A stretch of DNA of 64,000 bases from Bacteroidia bacterium (lineage in GTDB: Bacteria; Bacteroidota; Bacteroidia; UKL13-3), in NCBI GenBank assembly GCA_019695215.1, contig JAIBAK010000016.1:676-64675 (forward strand), given 5' to 3'. This document shows positions 56,021 through 62,786 of this stretch, in pieces; position 1 is the stretch's first letter; each line of letters starts with the position of its first letter. The position numbers were made by a program, and so were the translations under genes. Below the pieces are notes generated by a model that did no database searches, was not told the DNA's origin, and was given only the letters and a program-made list of their open reading frames with translations.

Positions 56021-56674
56021 TCATTTCAATGATTTAATAAAAATTTTCTCGTAGTATAAACAAAAGTTTTTCAGTTCACATTCTCCACACTTTGGGGTAC
56101 GGGCAAGGCAAACATAACGGCCATGCAAAATAAGCCAGTGATGAGCTCTGGAGATGAACTGCTCCGGGATATATTTAACCAATTGCTTTTCGGCCTCGAG
56201 CGGGGTTTTGGCACTTTTGGTGAGGCCTAGCCTTTCGGATACACGAAACACATGTGTATCAACTGCCATGGCCGGCATATTAAAAATAACCGAGGCAATT
56301 ACATTGGCGGTTTTGCGCCCTACTCCCGGAAGTTTTACCAATTCCTCAATAGTGGCCGGTACTTCGCTGTTAAAATCCTTTACCAGCATTTGCGCCATTC
56401 CTATTAAATGTTTCGTTTTATTATTCGGGTAACTCACCGTTTTGATATAAGGAAACAGGGTATCAAAATCGGTTGCAGCCAAATCTTCGGGTTCAGGAAA
56501 ATCATGAAAAATGGCAGGTGTTACCAGATTGATGCGTTTATCAGTGCACTGAGCAGAAAGGATGACGGCAATCAATAACTGAAAGGGCGAATCATAATGC
56601 AACTCCGTTTGTGCTTCGGGGTGGTTGCGCACATGATAATCAATAAAACGGTCGAAACGTTCTTTACGGGTCAT
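56021..56674 (-). CDS. nth: Endonuclease III (DNA glycosylase/AP lyase).
   Basis: 'SPFQLLIAVILSAQCTD', 'LPGVGRKTANV', [4Fe-4S] cluster 'CLARTPKCGECELKNFC'. Confidence 0.93.
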   Translation of the reverse strand: MTRKERFDRFIDYHVRNHPEAQTELHYDSPFQLLIAVILSAQCTDKRINLVTPAIFHDFPEPEDLAATDFDTLFPYIKTVSYPNNKTKHLIGMAQMLVKDFNSEVPATIEELVKLPGVGRKTANVIASVIFNMPAMAVDTHVFRVSERLGLTKSAKTPLEAEKQLVKYIPEQFISRAHHWLILHGRYVCLARTPKCGECELKNFCLYYEKIFIKSLK

Positions 56675-56684
56675 AACAGAAAGG

Positions 56685-56692
56685 CAAAAATA
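56685..56692 (-). promoter_or_regulatory. TAnnTTTG -7 box of the nth promoter, which is part of the triplicated module.
   Basis: The minus strand reads TATTTTTG 10 nt upstream of the nth ATG. The same spacing is conserved in the copy at 62458-62465. Confidence 0.35.
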
Positions 56693-56825
56693 ATCAATCC
56701 AGAATTCAGCCCAGCCATTTTTTACTTGAGTTGCTTCTCACAAAAAACCATTGTTCTGTTATATATTTAAATAAACAATAAAAAAATTCATTGAAAGCAT
56801 ACTCATACATAACTTCAATTATTAT

Positions 56826-59800
56826 CTATCCTTTAATTATCAGTTTCTTTTTTTGAACCAATATCCCATCTTTAAATATAACTAACATGTAAACGCCCGG
56901 TGTTAATTGTGATATTTCACAGGATATAGTATTCACCCCTTCCTGCTTTATTGTACGCAACTCAATAATTCTTCCGGTTACATCTACAGCTTTAATATCA
57001 AAATTCCCTATGTTTTCTTTCGTTATAAAATCACTCGAAATATTAACTATTTGCTTTGCCGGATTTGGATAAATACGGTATTCTTTATTTTCTATTATCA
57101 TTTGGTTGGAATTAGGTTCTTCCCGTTTGCCATAAAACACTTCATTATTCACATCCGTTTCAGTAATTGCACCGCAGGAATAGGAAATAGAGCTACTGCG
57201 CTCTGACCCTGTGGTGCCTACAAGTGTTACATCGAAATATAAACTATACATACCTGATGGAATAGAGTAAGTGGGACTGTACCCGTAAAAATACCAGTAA
57301 TTAGATGTGAGATGAAGGGCGTGGTAACTGCTATTGGTTACATTACCTCCAATACTGTATGATGCCGGACTTGAAGAATAGTTTGGATAATAAAACGTAT
57401 TGTTTCCGTCTAAGGTTAATAAATCAAAAGCGTCACTAAGACCAATATCATAATCGGCAACATTAGTAAACCGGTTGTTGCCGCCTGCCACATTTGTAGT
57501 ACCCGCTGCATTTGAGCCGTTAGTGGCTGTACTAAGGTTCAACGTTACACCACTTCCTGCAAGTACAGAGGCGTTGTTATCTTCAAATTCGCTACAGGAA
57601 ATGGTTGCTTGCAGCGTACCAAATACTTCTACAGCCGAACCATTCTCAGAAAATAACGACTGTTCTATTAACAGGTGTGCATTGGTGCCTCCACTATAGT
57701 AAATGCCCTTTTGAGATGAGCCTAAAATACGACCTTTAAACTGACTCAGCCCTTCCATTTCGGTGGCGTACCAGGCATAATCGCAATTGGTAAACTGGTT
57801 ATTGTTCAGATAAGCCCGGTAACCTTCGGTAACAATGGCTTTTTCACAATCGGTAAATTTGCACCCGCGTATTTCAAACAAGGTCACATCGGATGACGAT
57901 AGTTTATTTAAGGCAATTTTTGCCTTACCGAATTCACAAAATTTTACAGTAAGACTGCTTCCATTTTGACCATCAAAAGTTATTCCCTGAAATTTATCTG
58001 AAGTAGCCCATGGCAATGGAGCAAACTTCACACTTTCTAAATGAGTGGAAGATGAAGTTTTTATCTCCGCATCTTCTCCCATTTCTACCAATCCATTTTT
58101 TAGTTCCACCCCGTTGTAACCTGATGCATTAATTCCTCCTCCTATCACACGTAACATCAGGTCAGTTTTGTTACTACCCTCTAATGTTATAGAGCAACTG
58201 CCTGTTTTACTAATAGAAGCGTAGCCGCTGCTTTGCGAAATAATTGTGATAAAACCACTTCCTGTAAAAGTGAGATCATAATTATCCAACTCTAGGTAAC
58301 CGCCCATTTCAAGATTTGATCCGTCATCCTGGAGGGTTATGGTTCCTCCGTTTAACTCAAGAGTAGCCCCAGGCTTAATGGTGAGCTTGGAGTTTTTATA
58401 AATTTTTAAACTGGCACCGGGATTCAATATTAAACGGGAACCCGAATTAATGGTAAGCCCTGCGTGGTGGTCGGTGCCGGCATCGCCAAGTTGCAACTCG
58501 CCATTTACAGTAATGGTAACGGGGTCAGATGTGCAGTTGTTGTCGTGTATAAAGGTTTCTACAAAATAGGTAGAGCCCACCGGAGGTTCATCGTTATTGT
58601 AATTATCATCGGTGTACCCGGCTTTTACATTTTTATTTATGGCCAAAGTACCGTTCACAGTTACATCGCCCACCCAATCACTTACAGGCGCCCCATAGTT
58701 GTAGGTTTTACCAGAGGGTATAGTGGCCGGAGCGGTGTTGAGCATTTCGTTTTCGAAAATTTTAACGGAATGGGAAGTGAAAGCTGTATGTCCACCATTA
58801 CGCAGACTATCGGGTGGAGGAGTGGCAAGGTCATCCTGCGTAATGTATCTTTTGGCTCTTACCTTTGAATAAGGATCTGTATTTACCAAATAATTAAAGT
58901 CCTTTTCCGATGTATCAACTGCCGATGCGCTGATGGTGGGGACAAAACACAAAAAAGGAAATGCTCTATTTATTTTTTTCTTCCCCAAACCTTCTGTGAT
59001 GCTCGCACCTGCAATGGCATCCAAACCACCTACACTGCCGGGCTTATTATCCACACCATTCCACATACTCGATGGAGCTATAGTGCGGGCATAATACGGA
59101 TATACAATGGTTTTATTAATTTTATTTACGATGGCTCCGTTAAAAACAACCTTGCTCGGTGTACCGGATTCAGGCATGGCCCATATACTAAATACTAATC
59201 CGTGTAATGCCTTTTTATTATGTAAATGAAAACTCTCATCATAGCCTGCCAGTAAGTCACCTGCATTCATTGGTACCCAGGTAGCGCCTACTTTAACCCC
59301 TTGGCTAAAAGCGGTACCCGAGCCGTTGGCAATGGTTACCATTTTACAACCCAGTCCGTCAACCGGGGCAATAGTATTTAGTTCCTGATAAAATGAATCG
59401 TGCAATCCGGAATAAGTGGTATTGTATTTAAAAACGTAATTAATGAGTAACTGGCGAACTGCCGGGCAGGTTAATGTTTTATAATCCCACCACACATCGG
59501 CTGCTTCAACACGGGGTATGTATTGCCCGTATGTAAAATAATACCTGTACATGGCATTGATAAAACCCTGCATACCCAGCGAAGCATTGGCTCCGCGATG
59601 GGGCGAATCGTGGGTAATGAGCAAACGGGTATCGTGGTCGGCCGAATCATTGTCAAGGTACTGCTTATGCATTTTACCCAATGCATAACGCGAAATGATA
59701 CCGCCCAGGCTGTTGCCAAACACCACATTTTGCGCATGCGAACCATTCACCTCTTTTTCATGATTTACCCATTTAATAATATCCTCAAATACCAGTGCAT

Positions 59801-60932
59801 TGCGCTGTATATAATCGGTGGGGTCATAAAAATCAACAAAAATGAGGTCGTACTCTTGCTTCAGTACTTCTGGGACAATTGTATTTGAATTAAAAACATC
59901 TTGCTTGCCGACCTTACTCCAAAAATTATCTCCCATAATTGGTCCGTAAAATTTAGATGCACCCGTAAGGCTTATGGGGGTATGAAACCCGCCCGCCACT
60001 ATAAACGGCCTGCGTATTTTATGATCGGGGTTGCACTTAGCATAATTAATAGAAATATAGGCCTTGCCCGGAGCACCCTGATAATTGCCTGACGACTGTA
60101 CCAGCAACCATTCATCACAAAAATGCCAATTCCCTTCAGCATCTTTAAAAGCACCGTTCGGGTGTCGCTCTATAATAAAAGAAGAACTTAATGTAGTAAG
60201 GTCGCTCAGGTAAACCATGCACTTTACCTCGTACATACCAGCCGTATCATATTCCACCAACACGGCTTCGTCAAACTGCACCGCCTGCCAGCCCTGCCCG
60301 TCTCCAAAATCCACCTTTATCGAATCTACCTCCCGTTCATCGTTGCTCACATACAGGTGTTGGGGAAAAATAAATTGAACCAGGGTATCTCGTGTACCCA
60401 GCACACCGGCAGCAGCCACAAAACAGGTATGGTTTTCATAAGGGCTTTCGCTGCGCCCGTCCACATCATATATTTCAATGCCATCCATGCTCAGCAGGCT
60501 ATCGGCAAAGGCACTGTCTTTAATGCTGCTGTAGCGGTAATTGAGAATGGAAACGGGTACAAATCCGCTATCTATATAGCTTTGCATGGTATCCACTATA
60601 TGCAACAAGGCCAGGGTATCATTGGCTATGGCTGTATCTACATGCGCCCGCCTTAGGGTTCCAAAGGCTTTGCGCCACAAAAACAGGTTGGCCTGGTTGC
60701 TATCTTCACTTATGCCATCAAACATAAACACATTGGTGGTGGCCATGGCTTTTTCAATTAAAATACCTGTAGGTACCTGCCCTAAGTCAACATGTTTAAA
60801 ACAGGAATCCATCATTTCCAGGTAGGAATATGCTATGGTAGAATCTGTAAATAACGAATCGTCCTGAGCGAAACTTATTTGAGGGAAACAGAAATACCAA
60901 AAGGTGAACAACAGCAAAATGATTTTTTTCAT
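56826..60932 (-). CDS. Giant T9SS cargo protein (1368 aa) with an N-terminal alpha/beta-hydrolase (lipase/esterase, GxSxG) region, a right-handed beta-helix (pectate-lyase-like) repeat region and a type A T9SS C-terminal domain.
   Basis: Signal peptide. Nucleophile elbow 'VFGNSLGGIISRYALG' with downstream 'THDSPHRG'. Repeated 'NGG.I.L...S.L' beta-helix rungs. C-terminus 'YRIYPNPAKQIVNISSD...GVYMLVIFKDGILVQKKKLIIKG'. Confidence 0.8.
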   Translation of the reverse strand: MKKIILLLFTFWYFCFPQISFAQDDSLFTDSTIAYSYLEMMDSCFKHVDLGQVPTGILIEKAMATTNVFMFDGISEDSNQANLFLWRKAFGTLRRAHVDTAIANDTLALLHIVDTMQSYIDSGFVPVSILNYRYSSIKDSAFADSLLSMDGIEIYDVDGRSESPYENHTCFVAAAGVLGTRDTLVQFIFPQHLYVSNDEREVDSIKVDFGDGQGWQAVQFDEAVLVEYDTAGMYEVKCMVYLSDLTTLSSSFIIERHPNGAFKDAEGNWHFCDEWLLVQSSGNYQGAPGKAYISINYAKCNPDHKIRRPFIVAGGFHTPISLTGASKFYGPIMGDNFWSKVGKQDVFNSNTIVPEVLKQEYDLIFVDFYDPTDYIQRNALVFEDIIKWVNHEKEVNGSHAQNVVFGNSLGGIISRYALGKMHKQYLDNDSADHDTRLLITHDSPHRGANASLGMQGFINAMYRYYFTYGQYIPRVEAADVWWDYKTLTCPAVRQLLINYVFKYNTTYSGLHDSFYQELNTIAPVDGLGCKMVTIANGSGTAFSQGVKVGATWVPMNAGDLLAGYDESFHLHNKKALHGLVFSIWAMPESGTPSKVVFNGAIVNKINKTIVYPYYARTIAPSSMWNGVDNKPGSVGGLDAIAGASITEGLGKKKINRAFPFLCFVPTISASAVDTSEKDFNYLVNTDPYSKVRAKRYITQDDLATPPPDSLRNGGHTAFTSHSVKIFENEMLNTAPATIPSGKTYNYGAPVSDWVGDVTVNGTLAINKNVKAGYTDDNYNNDEPPVGSTYFVETFIHDNNCTSDPVTITVNGELQLGDAGTDHHAGLTINSGSRLILNPGASLKIYKNSKLTIKPGATLELNGGTITLQDDGSNLEMGGYLELDNYDLTFTGSGFITIISQSSGYASISKTGSCSITLEGSNKTDLMLRVIGGGINASGYNGVELKNGLVEMGEDAEIKTSSSTHLESVKFAPLPWATSDKFQGITFDGQNGSSLTVKFCEFGKAKIALNKLSSSDVTLFEIRGCKFTDCEKAIVTEGYRAYLNNNQFTNCDYAWYATEMEGLSQFKGRILGSSQKGIYYSGGTNAHLLIEQSLFSENGSAVEVFGTLQATISCSEFEDNNASVLAGSGVTLNLSTATNGSNAAGTTNVAGGNNRFTNVADYDIGLSDAFDLLTLDGNNTFYYPNYSSSPASYSIGGNVTNSSYHALHLTSNYWYFYGYSPTYSIPSGMYSLYFDVTLVGTTGSERSSSISYSCGAITETDVNNEVFYGKREEPNSNQMIIENKEYRIYPNPAKQIVNISSDFITKENIGNFDIKAVDVTGRIIELRTIKQEGVNTISCEISQLTPGVYMLVIFKDGILVQKKKLIIKG

Positions 60933-60949
60933 AAGTAAAAATTAATTAG

Positions 60950-61486
60950 TTAATAACTTATATCAAAACGGCCTGATTCTACCTTTACAGAAGTAAGTCC
61001 ATTATCATCTAATAAGGTGAAACCGAACATACCTGCGGCAAATCCGTTTACTGTATCAAGCCGGGTAATATTTATCCAGGCAAAACCGCCTGCATTGATG
61101 GGATGATGGGAATCATATGTGTTATTAATAATTTCTACGGAACATGATCCAAGATAATCATTATTAGTGTCGAACCAGGCAATATAATTACCCGGTTTTG
61201 TTATATTTTTAGTTGAAATCCGAACCCATTGCGAATCAAAAAAACTCAGCTCAGAGGCTTTTATATAATAGCCAACACTTAGCACTCCATTTTCATAAAA
61301 TGTCTGTATATAATGATACCCCTTCTCATAAACAGGCCAGGCCTTCCCATTAATAAGGCACCCAAACGTACCCAGACCACTGGCAGTGGCAGGGGGGAGT
61401 TTATCAATTTCTTCTTCTTTTTTGCATCCGGCATACAAGAGTGGGATGCAACAAAACAGAACAAAAACTTTATGCAGTTTATTCAT
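60950..61486 (-). CDS. Hypothetical lipoprotein. It ends 17 nt upstream of the giant T9SS gene start, so the two are probably co-transcribed.
   Basis: Lipobox 'LLYAGCKKEEE'. Confidence 0.5.
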   Translation of the reverse strand: MNKLHKVFVLFCCIPLLYAGCKKEEEIDKLPPATASGLGTFGCLINGKAWPVYEKGYHYIQTFYENGVLSVGYYIKASELSFFDSQWVRISTKNITKPGNYIAWFDTNNDYLGSCSVEIINNTYDSHHPINAGGFAWINITRLDTVNGFAAGMFGFTLLDDNGLTSVKVESGRFDISY

Positions 61487-61595
61487 TTGAGTTTTATTTT
61501 ATTAATTACAAAATTAAATGGTTTTATGTGGTATTTGCAAGAAAAAAATCCTTAGCGGCATACAAACAGAAATTGAATGAAAAGATTGATGAAAA

Positions 61596-61765
61596 TTAAA
61601 GATGAGTAAAAGAAAAAGAAACAAAATGATTTTTTAAAAAATCTTCTTTTAGCTCACCGAAGTTCAACCAGGTCTTTGCTCCCGAATGGTTGCGTACATG
61701 GTAATCTATAAAACGGTCAAAACGTTCTTTGCGGGTCATGTTGCAATATCAGGCAAATCACTTTG
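61596..61765 (-). repeat. Copy 2 of the nth 5'-end module, comprising an upstream box, the ATG and the first 17 nth-like codons. It forms a 47-codon uORF (MTRKERFDRFIDYHVRNHSGAKTWLNFGELK...) upstream of the lipoprotein gene 60950..61486.
   Basis: The reverse complement of 61684-61739 matches nth 56620-56674 at about 50 of 56 nt. It shares the downstream 'GGGAGCAAA...GGTGAG...AAGATT' extension with copy 3. Confidence 0.7.
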
Positions 61766-61806
61766 ATATTAAAAGCCTTTAAGAAACTCCAATAAAAAAG
61801 TGGTGG

Positions 61807-62286
61807 CTACCAAACCCTCTTCCCTTTGTATATTTTATCCCAACCGTTTGGAATTGGCTGATTTGTCTCGGAGGTCACTACAAAAGAGATGCTATCCATC
61901 ACGTGGTATTCTAATTTTAGTCCGCTTATGTACCGGCAATGGGAACATCCGGCTGCTTTATTGTAGTACCGGCTAAACGAGTTTGAATCGGATAAATCAA
62001 CCTCAAATGATTCAAATACTCCTGTAGTAGTATCCGGTCCCAAATTAGCCACTACCAGAGTAGCCCAAACATCCTGTTTTTGTACAATTCTTAAATACGC
62101 ATACCCGGTATCCTGAGGTGTACCGGACATCCACATCATATTGTCGTAGCGGCAGTAAAACAATCCGGTGTATCCTGACAAATTCAGTGACTGCACCCCA
62201 GCGTCTTCTTTGCTGCAGGAAATAAAGCATCCTAAAAAAAACACCGGAAGAAGTGTTTTGAAAGCGATATTTTTCATACTAACCAA
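61807..62286 (-). CDS. Hypothetical lipoprotein.
   Basis: Lipobox 'FFLGCFISCSKED'. Confidence 0.5.
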   Translation of the reverse strand: MVSMKNIAFKTLLPVFFLGCFISCSKEDAGVQSLNLSGYTGLFYCRYDNMMWMSGTPQDTGYAYLRIVQKQDVWATLVVANLGPDTTTGVFESFEVDLSDSNSFSRYYNKAAGCSHCRYISGLKLEYHVMDSISFVVTSETNQPIPNGWDKIYKGKRVW

Positions 62287-62363
62287 ATTTAGGGCAATTT
62301 ACTGAAAAGACATGCTCTAAATTCAATAGGTTGCAAACAAGGATTGCAAATCATATAAGGGAA

Positions 62364-62470
62364 TTAATCTTCACTCACCGGATTTGCTCCCAAATGATGG
62401 TTTACATGGTAATCAATAAACTGATCGAAACGTTCTTTACGCGTCATTACAGAAACGCAAAAATAGGAGG
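62364..62470 (-). repeat. Copy 3 of the nth 5'-end module with a conserved -7 box. It forms a 27-codon uORF (MTRKERFDQFIDYHVNHHLGANPVSED*) upstream of the lipoprotein gene 61807..62286.
   Basis: The reverse complement of 62395-62466 aligns with the nth start and promoter. The TATTTTTG box sits the same 10 nt from the ATG. Confidence 0.7.
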
Positions 62471-62549
62471 ACACGCAAAGTCCGATAGCTATCGAACGCT
62501 AAGGCAACTCTTAATTAACTTTGCGCCTTTGCGGGCTTTGCGTGAAAAA

Positions 62550-62786
62550 TCAAAACACCGTCTTTTCGTGCAGGGCAGCCGAGTATTCCAAAACAATGTT
62601 TACGCTGGTAGGATGAGGTTCTTCCAAACTATCACCAAGGGCGGTGATGGTTTTAACCAATTGGCGGTACTCATTCAGGAATTCCGGGTCGGAGGCTAAC
62701 TGTTCTACAATCCCAAGTTCTTCCTTTTCAGAAGTTTCGCGGTAAATAAAACGAATTAAGTCGTCAGGAGTAAATGTTTTGCGCAT
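62550..62786 (-). CDS. Small acidic hypothetical protein encoded immediately downstream of the ECF sigma factor (possible cognate regulatory partner).
   Basis: 78 aa, no transmembrane helix, 52-bp gap from the sigma factor gene on the same strand. Confidence 0.4.
   Translation of the reverse strand: MRKTFTPDDLIRFIYRETSEKEELGIVEQLASDPEFLNEYRQLVKTITALGDSLEEPHPTSVNIVLEYSAALHEKTVF

Follow-up and report, generated by a model that had tools for sequence, protein, structure and literature searches.

What is the start of a single housekeeping gene doing at three places within six kilobases, each time ahead of a different gene? The question is raised by a 64-kb stretch of DNA (in the following "the window": contig JAIBAK010000016.1 of assembly GCA_019695215.1, positions 676 to 64,675 of the forward strand) that is part of a metagenome-assembled genome (MAG) of a Bacteroidia bacterium, and in which the 5′-end of nth, the gene for endonuclease III, is repeated. 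Read along the minus strand, the order is a gene for an extracytoplasmic function (ECF) sigma factor, a gene for a protein of 78 amino acids (aa), repeat copy C, a 159-aa lipoprotein gene, copy B, a 178-aa lipoprotein gene, a 1368-aa gene, nth itself (its start is copy A), and recA. The 159-aa gene is referred to as module 1, and the block that contains the 178-aa and 1368-aa genes as module 2. The initial annotation had considered a transplanted promoter, a regulatory leader peptide or upstream open reading frame (uORF), and, as a third reading, the scar of insertions at the 5′-end of nth. Our analysis favours the third: B and C are probably dead 5′-stubs of nth, A is the current start, and together they would represent the junction repeats of two successive Campbell-type insertions. 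Related loci or contigs are denoted by L-numbers and proteins by P-numbers.

The occurrence of three nth starts in direct orientation, as initially annotated, was confirmed. The ATG codons are found at 56674 (A, the live nth gene), 61739 (B) and 62447 (C), with start-to-start spacings of 5065 and 708 nt, and the chance expectation for a 44-nt consensus of the repeat is 0.00 occurrences in the window. All three copies could be aligned, and no additional copy is present within the 64 kb. Repeats of the nth 5′-end were also absent from 160 nth loci of other genomes and metagenomes, the close clade described below excepted; self-comparison of nth loci is, however, too insensitive for decayed stubs and missed C in the relatives L001 and L002.

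Segment-wise comparison of the copies defined a repeat unit, R, that extends from about -18 to +53 relative to the ATG. From +1 to +53, the three copies and the true nth starts of the relatives are 79-98% identical. Among themselves, A, B and C share 79-91% identity across ~53 nt, e.g. 90.6% for A and B from +1 to +53; for A and C, the value is 88.7% from -18 to +44. Over 75 nt from the ATG, the identity to nth is 81% for B and 71% for C, i.e. lower than the ~85-90% over ~75 nt initially proposed, and the well-conserved part is shorter. Upstream of the ATG (-21 to -1), A and C share TATTTTTGC(C/G)TTTCTGT(T/A) and are 76-86% identical, whereas B has a different sequence, GTGATTTGCCTGATATTGCAAC. 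The TATTTTTG -7 box that had been assigned to all copies is therefore found at A and C and not at B, so that the promoter in this form is present twice, not three times. Downstream of +53, A runs on as nth; B keeps the nth register as far as about +88, and beyond this point its identity drops to chance level.

Other parts of the initial description also hold. The two extra copies head open reading frames (ORFs) of 47 codons (B) and 27 codons (C) that start with MTRKERFD(R/Q)FIDYHV, and the measured distances to the lipoprotein genes downstream are ~110 and 80 nt. The resemblance of B and C past codon 17 is real, albeit short and weak: it consists of CATT(C/T)GGGAGCAAA, followed by GGTGAG and AAGATT, and local alignment of the parts past codon 17 yielded z-scores of 2.9 for B versus C of the window and 4.5 for B versus C of L001. 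This likeness is better supported by shared derived bases (see below) than by alignment.

As the window stems from a MAG, K1X81, in which P0039 corresponds to K1X81_07125, and short-read contigs tend to break near paralogues of the 178-aa gene, a chimeric assembly could in principle have joined contigs at a short repeat. Against this, the copies are 79-91% identical over 53 nt only, a stretch that is not long or similar enough to misguide an assembler. Moreover, the junctions C-159-aa-B-178-aa and 1368-aa-A-nth are reproduced in independent assemblies (L161, L163, L165-L171, L081 and L178-L182), which stem from over 12 runs and also from two other projects. The recurrence of the junctions therefore argues that the repeat is not an assembly artefact, an explanation that we regard as extremely improbable.

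Genome and metagenome scans with nth, together with exact-protein look-ups, retrieved relatives of the locus. Four further lineages belong to the same uncultured Bacteroidia clade, namely L081/L163, with 93.5% nucleotide identity to the window, L001, L002 (with L173-L175), and L164. The gene order sigma factor-78-aa protein (p78)-nth is widespread in Bacteroidota, and in compact genomes the stop codon of p78 is located 25-260 nt before the ATG of nth. C lies ~85 nt after the 78-aa gene, and because nth is found there in compact outgroup genomes, C occupies the ancestral position of the nth start. The TATTTTTGCC box of C also resembles outgroup nth promoters, e.g. TATATTTGCC.

The gene content between the sigma factor gene and nth turned out to be variable, with module 2 polymorphic within the clade and module 1 missing in outgroups. 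Each of the five close genomes has a C stub and a 159-aa-type lipoprotein gene in the interval from p78 to nth. In L001, L002 and L164, nth follows directly after module 1, without the ~5-kb block, and is preceded by B-type sequence: the 21 nt upstream of B are 100%, 95% and 81% identical, respectively, to the native sequence upstream of nth in these three genomes. The use of a B-type nth promoter in the block-free relatives supports the reading as an insertion scar. Module 2 is absent from L001, L002, L164 and L173-L175, and present in the window, L081 and L163; the block of L081/L163 is shared with the window, but holds three 178-like genes. Alignments with the block-free loci reach position +53 of B and restart at the ATG of A, so that 53 nt align twice. 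In an nth tree, the five genomes form one clade (100%), and the window and L081 are sisters (93%); the branching of L001, L002 and L164 was not resolved. On the basis of this tree, a single gain of module 2 is favoured.

The composition of B and A points in the same direction. The divergence of B from nth changes stepwise, from 9% between +1 and +53 to 46% between +54 and +88, and reaches chance level beyond; the in-register identity is 54% in the second segment, compared to 16-24% past +88. In a 40-nt stretch, B differs from invariant nth at 14 positions, and at 9 of these 14 it has the base of the C stubs of L001 or L002 (binomial P about 0.009, for an anchor that was picked after inspection). 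Neither L001 nor L002, the sources of the matching C stubs, has a B stub. It thus seems that junctions of one kind arose on two occasions at a single site. The six differences between A and B in positions 1 to 54 are all synonymous third-position changes, which is compatible with functional nth alleles as the source of both starts. In addition, A (region 56611-56692) and the C stub of L164 (L164:93-272) have a single mismatch in 66 nt (-18 to +48), despite a divergence of 14% between the nth genes of the window and L164; selection, recent conversion or transfer could account for this near-identity. Judged by these comparisons, both are chimeras: in B, the B-type promoter of the resident gene and R are followed by a stub that is old and strongly diverged, and in A, a C-type promoter and R are followed by nth. 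This composition suggests that the inserted unit behaved like a circle that carried a full C-type copy (box, R, and stub) together with the 178-aa and 1368-aa genes.

Two insertions of the following kind would produce the present arrangement with all its junctions. The ancestral order would have been ECF sigma factor gene, 78-aa gene, nth. Incoming DNA, circular or otherwise able to recombine, would bear a look-alike of the nth start, in which a -7 box and a short leader precede the first ~18 codons and a diverged stub. A crossover between this look-alike and the resident nth start within +1 to +53 would leave the resident promoter and first codons behind, joined to the incoming stub, and would supply the remainder of nth with the promoter and first codons of the incoming DNA, so that nth would stay intact. 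In each insertion, the look-alike would serve both as the region of homology or att site and as the replacement for promoter and first codons. The insertion of module 1 would be the earlier one, in the common ancestor of the five related genomes, and that of module 2 the later one, in the ancestor of the window and L081/L163. The crossovers could have been catalysed by a site-specific recombinase acting in trans, or could have occurred by homologous recombination within the 53 nt. Two properties of the locus are those of integrative elements: direct repeats bound the modules (B and A for module 2, C and B for module 1) next to an intact nth, and the breakpoints of the presence/absence polymorphism are located exactly at the repeats.

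Several observations weigh against two insertions of this kind. The promoter arms of the two modules differ, one being of the B type and the other of the C type. No integrase or transposase was found in either module with Pfam and NCBIfam, hence no tyrosine or serine recombinase as is typical of integrative elements, and no integrase is present among ten window ORFs of 300-430 aa or in the annotated flanks of L172. The modules, with spacers of ~130 nt or less, are devoid of remnants of mobility genes, and they are so compact that hidden remnants are therefore not possible. Plasmid, phage and viral collections contain no match for the 5-kb block, nor does the repeat pattern occur in viral contigs. 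Among 12 short contigs of the population, none represents an excised or empty-site variant: 7 of 7 contigs spanning C-159-aa-B and 5 of 5 contigs spanning the A junction match the window. No nth-like sequence was detected in the readable flanks of paralogous modules at L162, L176, L177 and L183, of which L177 begins 31 nt before its first gene. Lastly, as the branching of L001, L002 and L164 is not resolved in the tree, these lineages may instead have lost module 2 through a crossover of B with A.

That last point leads to an explanation that dispenses with an imported look-alike, i.e. a purely local history of insertion plus unequal crossing-over or template switching among the nth 5′-copies. 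For example, module 2 could have arrived first and module 1 have entered the stub later, and the block-free relatives could have lost module 2 by recombination of B with A. A crossover of B and A within R yields exactly the combination of B-type promoter and nth that is seen in L001, L002 and L164, and a local origin directly explains the native C-type promoter of A as well as the derived bases common to the B and C stubs. The region is also prone to tandem duplication, as L163 contains three 178-like genes interleaved with gene fragments. However, such a history requires one to three independent deletions instead of one gain, and it still involves two insertions into the same ~100 nt, each of which duplicated more than 70 nt; we know of no simple mechanism for insertions of this type other than recombination with a homologous segment. 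Furthermore, the B-type promoter would be the working nth promoter by accident. Taken together, we consider a purely local history rather unlikely.

A further-reaching idea is that the first 53 nt of nth and the -7 box constitute a reusable docking site for very compact cassettes of a lineage-specific lipoprotein and T9SS (type IX secretion system) family without a recombinase of their own, comparable to an integron; we deem this extension unlikely. The recombination site of each cassette would be the nth-start look-alike (promoter, 18 codons and old stub), homologous recombination or a recombinase from another locus would mobilize the cassettes, and each accretion or loss would exchange the nth promoter. 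Like integron cassettes, the modules are compact, promoter-poor units that have the same direction, are located at a fixed chromosomal site, and are each bounded by repeats. Unlike in integrons, neither intI and attI nor a structured, hairpin-forming attC was found, what is repeated is a coding 5′-end, and the array comprises only two units.

The initial annotation had preferred to view the copies as a housekeeping promoter plus leader that was recruited in front of the lipoprotein genes, or as uORFs. According to this explanation, the duplicated nth promoter and short ORF are maintained to drive or regulate the lipoprotein and T9SS genes. Exact matches to TAnnTTTG, the -7 box motif of Bacteroidota sigma-A promoters that is located a short distance before the transcription start, are present at A (56685-56692), at C, and in front of both lipoprotein genes (see table), and the region upstream of B contains only TGATTTG. 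The motif is not enriched in the window (84 occurrences versus 79 expected), and all boxes are putative and represent sequence matches. Retention of the box at C in the window as well as in L164 is compatible with recruitment, as are three further observations. First, no terminator-like site separates the stubs from the lipoprotein genes, and read-through from stub promoters into these genes may occur. Second, the C ORF of L164, in which the stub is unusually well kept, has 52 codons and ends 2 nt before the ATG of the lipoprotein gene. Third, the B ORFs of the window and L163 differ by five synonymous changes and one conservative change, and the 21 nt upstream of B are unchanged relative to L001.

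In contrast, for three of the five synonymous differences the alternative base is that of copy A, a pattern more suggestive of conversion than of selection. Both L001 and L002 have a frameshift in the C stub, which in L002 has lost its ATG as well, and the TAnnTTTG box is gone from both stubs, whereas the lipoprotein gene downstream is intact in both genomes. Past codon 17, the C ORF varies in sequence and in length (27 codons in the window versus 52 in L164). The two lipoprotein genes have TAnnTTTG-like boxes of their own in a proximal position, and the box of the 159-aa gene is invariant in L001 and L002. In addition, paralogous modules elsewhere do without an nth-like leader. None of the three copies has above-chance structure (z-scores of single-strand DNA folds versus shuffled sequences were -0.32, -0.23 and +0.25), and Rfam yielded nothing above threshold at the copies. 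The hallmarks of a leader-peptide or uORF attenuator are missing, as the C ORF is not conserved and neither a terminator nor RNA structure was found at the copies. Because C is decayed in two relatives and the lipoprotein genes have their own boxes, a recruited promoter or uORF is not supported, and we view it as quite improbable. Only two proteins were retrieved from the protein database with the B ORF as query: P0037, which is encoded by the corresponding B stub of L163, and P0038, which is encoded by the L164 C stub. A match to Y RNA in Rfam over the B stub (61580-61669, minus strand; 22.1 bits versus a gathering threshold of 38, E 0.73) was treated as a chance hit.

The coordinates of the features are summarized in the table.

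Features of the nth locus, in the direction of transcription (positions in the window; nt, nucleotides)
Feature	Position	Strand	Remarks
ECF-type sigma-70 factor, 193 aa	62839..63420	-	Sigma70_r2 and r4_2 domains; TIGR02937
78-aa acidic protein (p78), conserved ECF sigma partner, possible anti-sigma factor	62550..62786	-	weak anti-sigma match below cutoff, E 0.002
Copy C: TATTTTTG box (62458-62465), ATG 62447, +1 to +53 (to 62395), then decayed stub; 27-codon ORF	62364..62465	-	
Module 1: 159-aa lipoprotein gene, likely start ATG 62277	61807..62286	-	own TAAATTTG box at 62284-62291
Copy B: B-type promoter region (GTGATTTGCCTGATATTGCAAC), ATG 61739, +1 to +53; probable former live nth start; heads 47-codon ORF (61596-61739)	61687..61765	-	
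Copy B, old-stub part, +54 to +88	61652..61686	-	nth-derived, in register, 46% diverged, C type
Module 2, ~5 kb: spacer Y, 1368-aa gene, 178-aa gene, spacer X (61487-61651)	56693..61651	-	
178-aa lipoprotein, Riean_0653 family	60950-61486	-	own TAATTTTG box at 61509-61516
1368-aa protein with T9SS C-terminal sorting domain	56826-60932	-	Pfam/NCBIfam
Module 2, spacer Y	56693-56825	-	
Copy A = repeat unit R, -18 to +53: TATTTTTG box, short leader, ATG, first 18 nth codons	56622..56692	-	
nth (endonuclease III), 217 aa, live gene	56021..56674	-	TIGR01083, 244 bits versus cutoff 211.7; HhH-GPD and FeS motif

The ECF sigma factor and its small acidic partner directly upstream of the array had been recognized in the initial annotation, and both the domains and the synteny of the p78 and sigma factor genes, which is maintained across Bacteroidota, agree with this assignment. 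The gap between p78 and C contains a perfect 9-nt inverted repeat, CACGCAAAG...CTTTGCGTG (minus strand, 62472-62480 and 62536-62544), whose arms are separated by 55 nt. L001, L002 and L164 have retained the distal arm CTTTGCGTG, and the inverted repeat may act in the sigma factor/p78 operon, either as a terminator or in regulation. With respect to the module proteins, Pfam and NCBIfam yielded matches only to the T9SS sorting domain, to DUF676 (weak), and to the Riean_0653 family; no family in either database matched the 159-aa lipoprotein. An interpretation of the repeated unit as a tandem duplication of paralogous lipoproteins was rejected, as the 159-aa and 178-aa proteins have no similarity (E 30).

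The record that contains L002/L172 (CAZHTC010000004.1) is titled "uncultured Bifidobacteriaceae bacterium". Its locus is 82-90% identical to the window over 13 kb and shares the order sigma factor-p78-nth-recA-cytochrome oxidase, and the Bifidobacteriaceae label of this MAG looks wrong. In Rufibacter, Sabulibacter and Nibribacter (L034, L056, L052 and L038), the gap between the p78 homologue and nth ranges from 25 to 2372 nt and contains unrelated genes in either orientation, without a detectable nth repeat. The sigma factor-p78-nth junction thus appears to be a recurrent insertion point also in a second family, Rufibacter and its relatives; as these insertions lack nth repeats, they do not support a general mechanism.

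The module with 178-like and T9SS genes is a multi-copy family that is also found at other loci (L162, L176, L177 and L183), and at least 10 paralogues of the 178-aa lipoprotein are encoded in the MAG K1X81. P0001 is a 94% homologue of the 178-aa protein. Tandem arrays of the family were found at L163:478-3724, L176:9610-10765, L177:32-5580, L183:187-2877 and L162:3-781. In these arrays, each paralogue is followed by an N-terminal fragment (70-90 codons) of a large T9SS protein, and the full-length large gene comes last; the repeat unit is therefore a lipoprotein gene plus the first ~70 codons of the next gene. The large gene of L177 is 83% identical to the 1368-aa gene of the window and appears to be split (194 + 1201 aa). 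In L163, the large gene after the third paralogue (L163:2744-3721) encodes a protein that is 46% identical to the 1368-aa protein over the first 328 residues, and the C-terminal 224 residues encoded next to nth in L081 (L081:2-673) are 95% identical to it. It seems that the large gene of this 93.5% relative (L163/L081) is a mosaic, or that its array contains more than one large gene.

The evidence discussed here covers two events in one uncultured lineage. These events indicate that repeated insertions into the start of a housekeeping gene can be tolerated, if each insert brings a replacement for the promoter and the first codons, and that the stubs left over can pass for regulatory leaders or uORFs. 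If the stubs were active in recombination, the locus would offer genes of surface and secreted proteins a natural landing pad. To our knowledge, insertions that enter a gene at its 5′-end and replace its promoter are well documented in the case of SXT at prfC and have rarely been described in Bacteroidota or for small blocks without a recombinase.

Genomic islands at tRNA and tmRNA genes are bordered by direct repeats of the gene end and can be arranged in tandem. For the islands at ssrA of Dehalococcoides, site-specific mobilization by a mechanism common in this genus has been described (PMC3146451). Like at ssrA, the insertions described here are located at a single-copy conserved gene. In contrast to the nth case, tRNA/tmRNA islands carry integrases and target the 3′-ends of RNA genes, where no promoter has to be replaced.

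Cis-mobilizable elements (CIMEs) are closer in gene content. CIMEs lack an integrase and persist between att repeats, and tandem arrays are formed by accretion (PMC5704250). ICESt1-related islands at fda of Streptococcus thermophilus exemplify a second insertion into the att site that adjoins the gene (PMC5704250). The nth blocks likewise have no integrase and are located between direct repeats of the target gene's end that resemble attL and attR; att-like repeats are retained, and genes for integration and transfer are lacking. However, CIMEs are decayed integrative and conjugative or integrative and mobilizable elements at 3′-ends of genes for which a related active element is known, whereas the nth blocks have neither remnants of mobility genes nor an identified active relative (none was seen within the 64-kb window), and the target is a 5′-end including the promoter.

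In this last respect, the best match is the SXT/R391 family. SXT is reported, in work by Hochhut and Waldor from 1999, to supply a new promoter and new first codons for prfC. SXT/R391 elements integrate at the 5′-end of prfC without loss of function of this gene, and tandem elements at the site are possible (PMC2791158). Insertion at the 5′-end of a gene that remains functional and the tandem array are thus common to both cases. SXT elements have their own tyrosine integrase, Int, which defines the family, a size of about 100 kb, and conjugation genes, whereas the nth inserts have sizes of 0.7 and 5 kb and no recombinase. The nth case furthermore differs in its host group, Bacteroidota, in its target, nth, and in its long repeated segment (~71 nt plus the old stub). 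Elements that integrate at one end of a gene, restore it, and accumulate in tandem are therefore known, and the unusual features of the nth locus are the 5′-end target in a member of the Bacteroidota, the long look-alike, and the tiny, recombinase-less modules.

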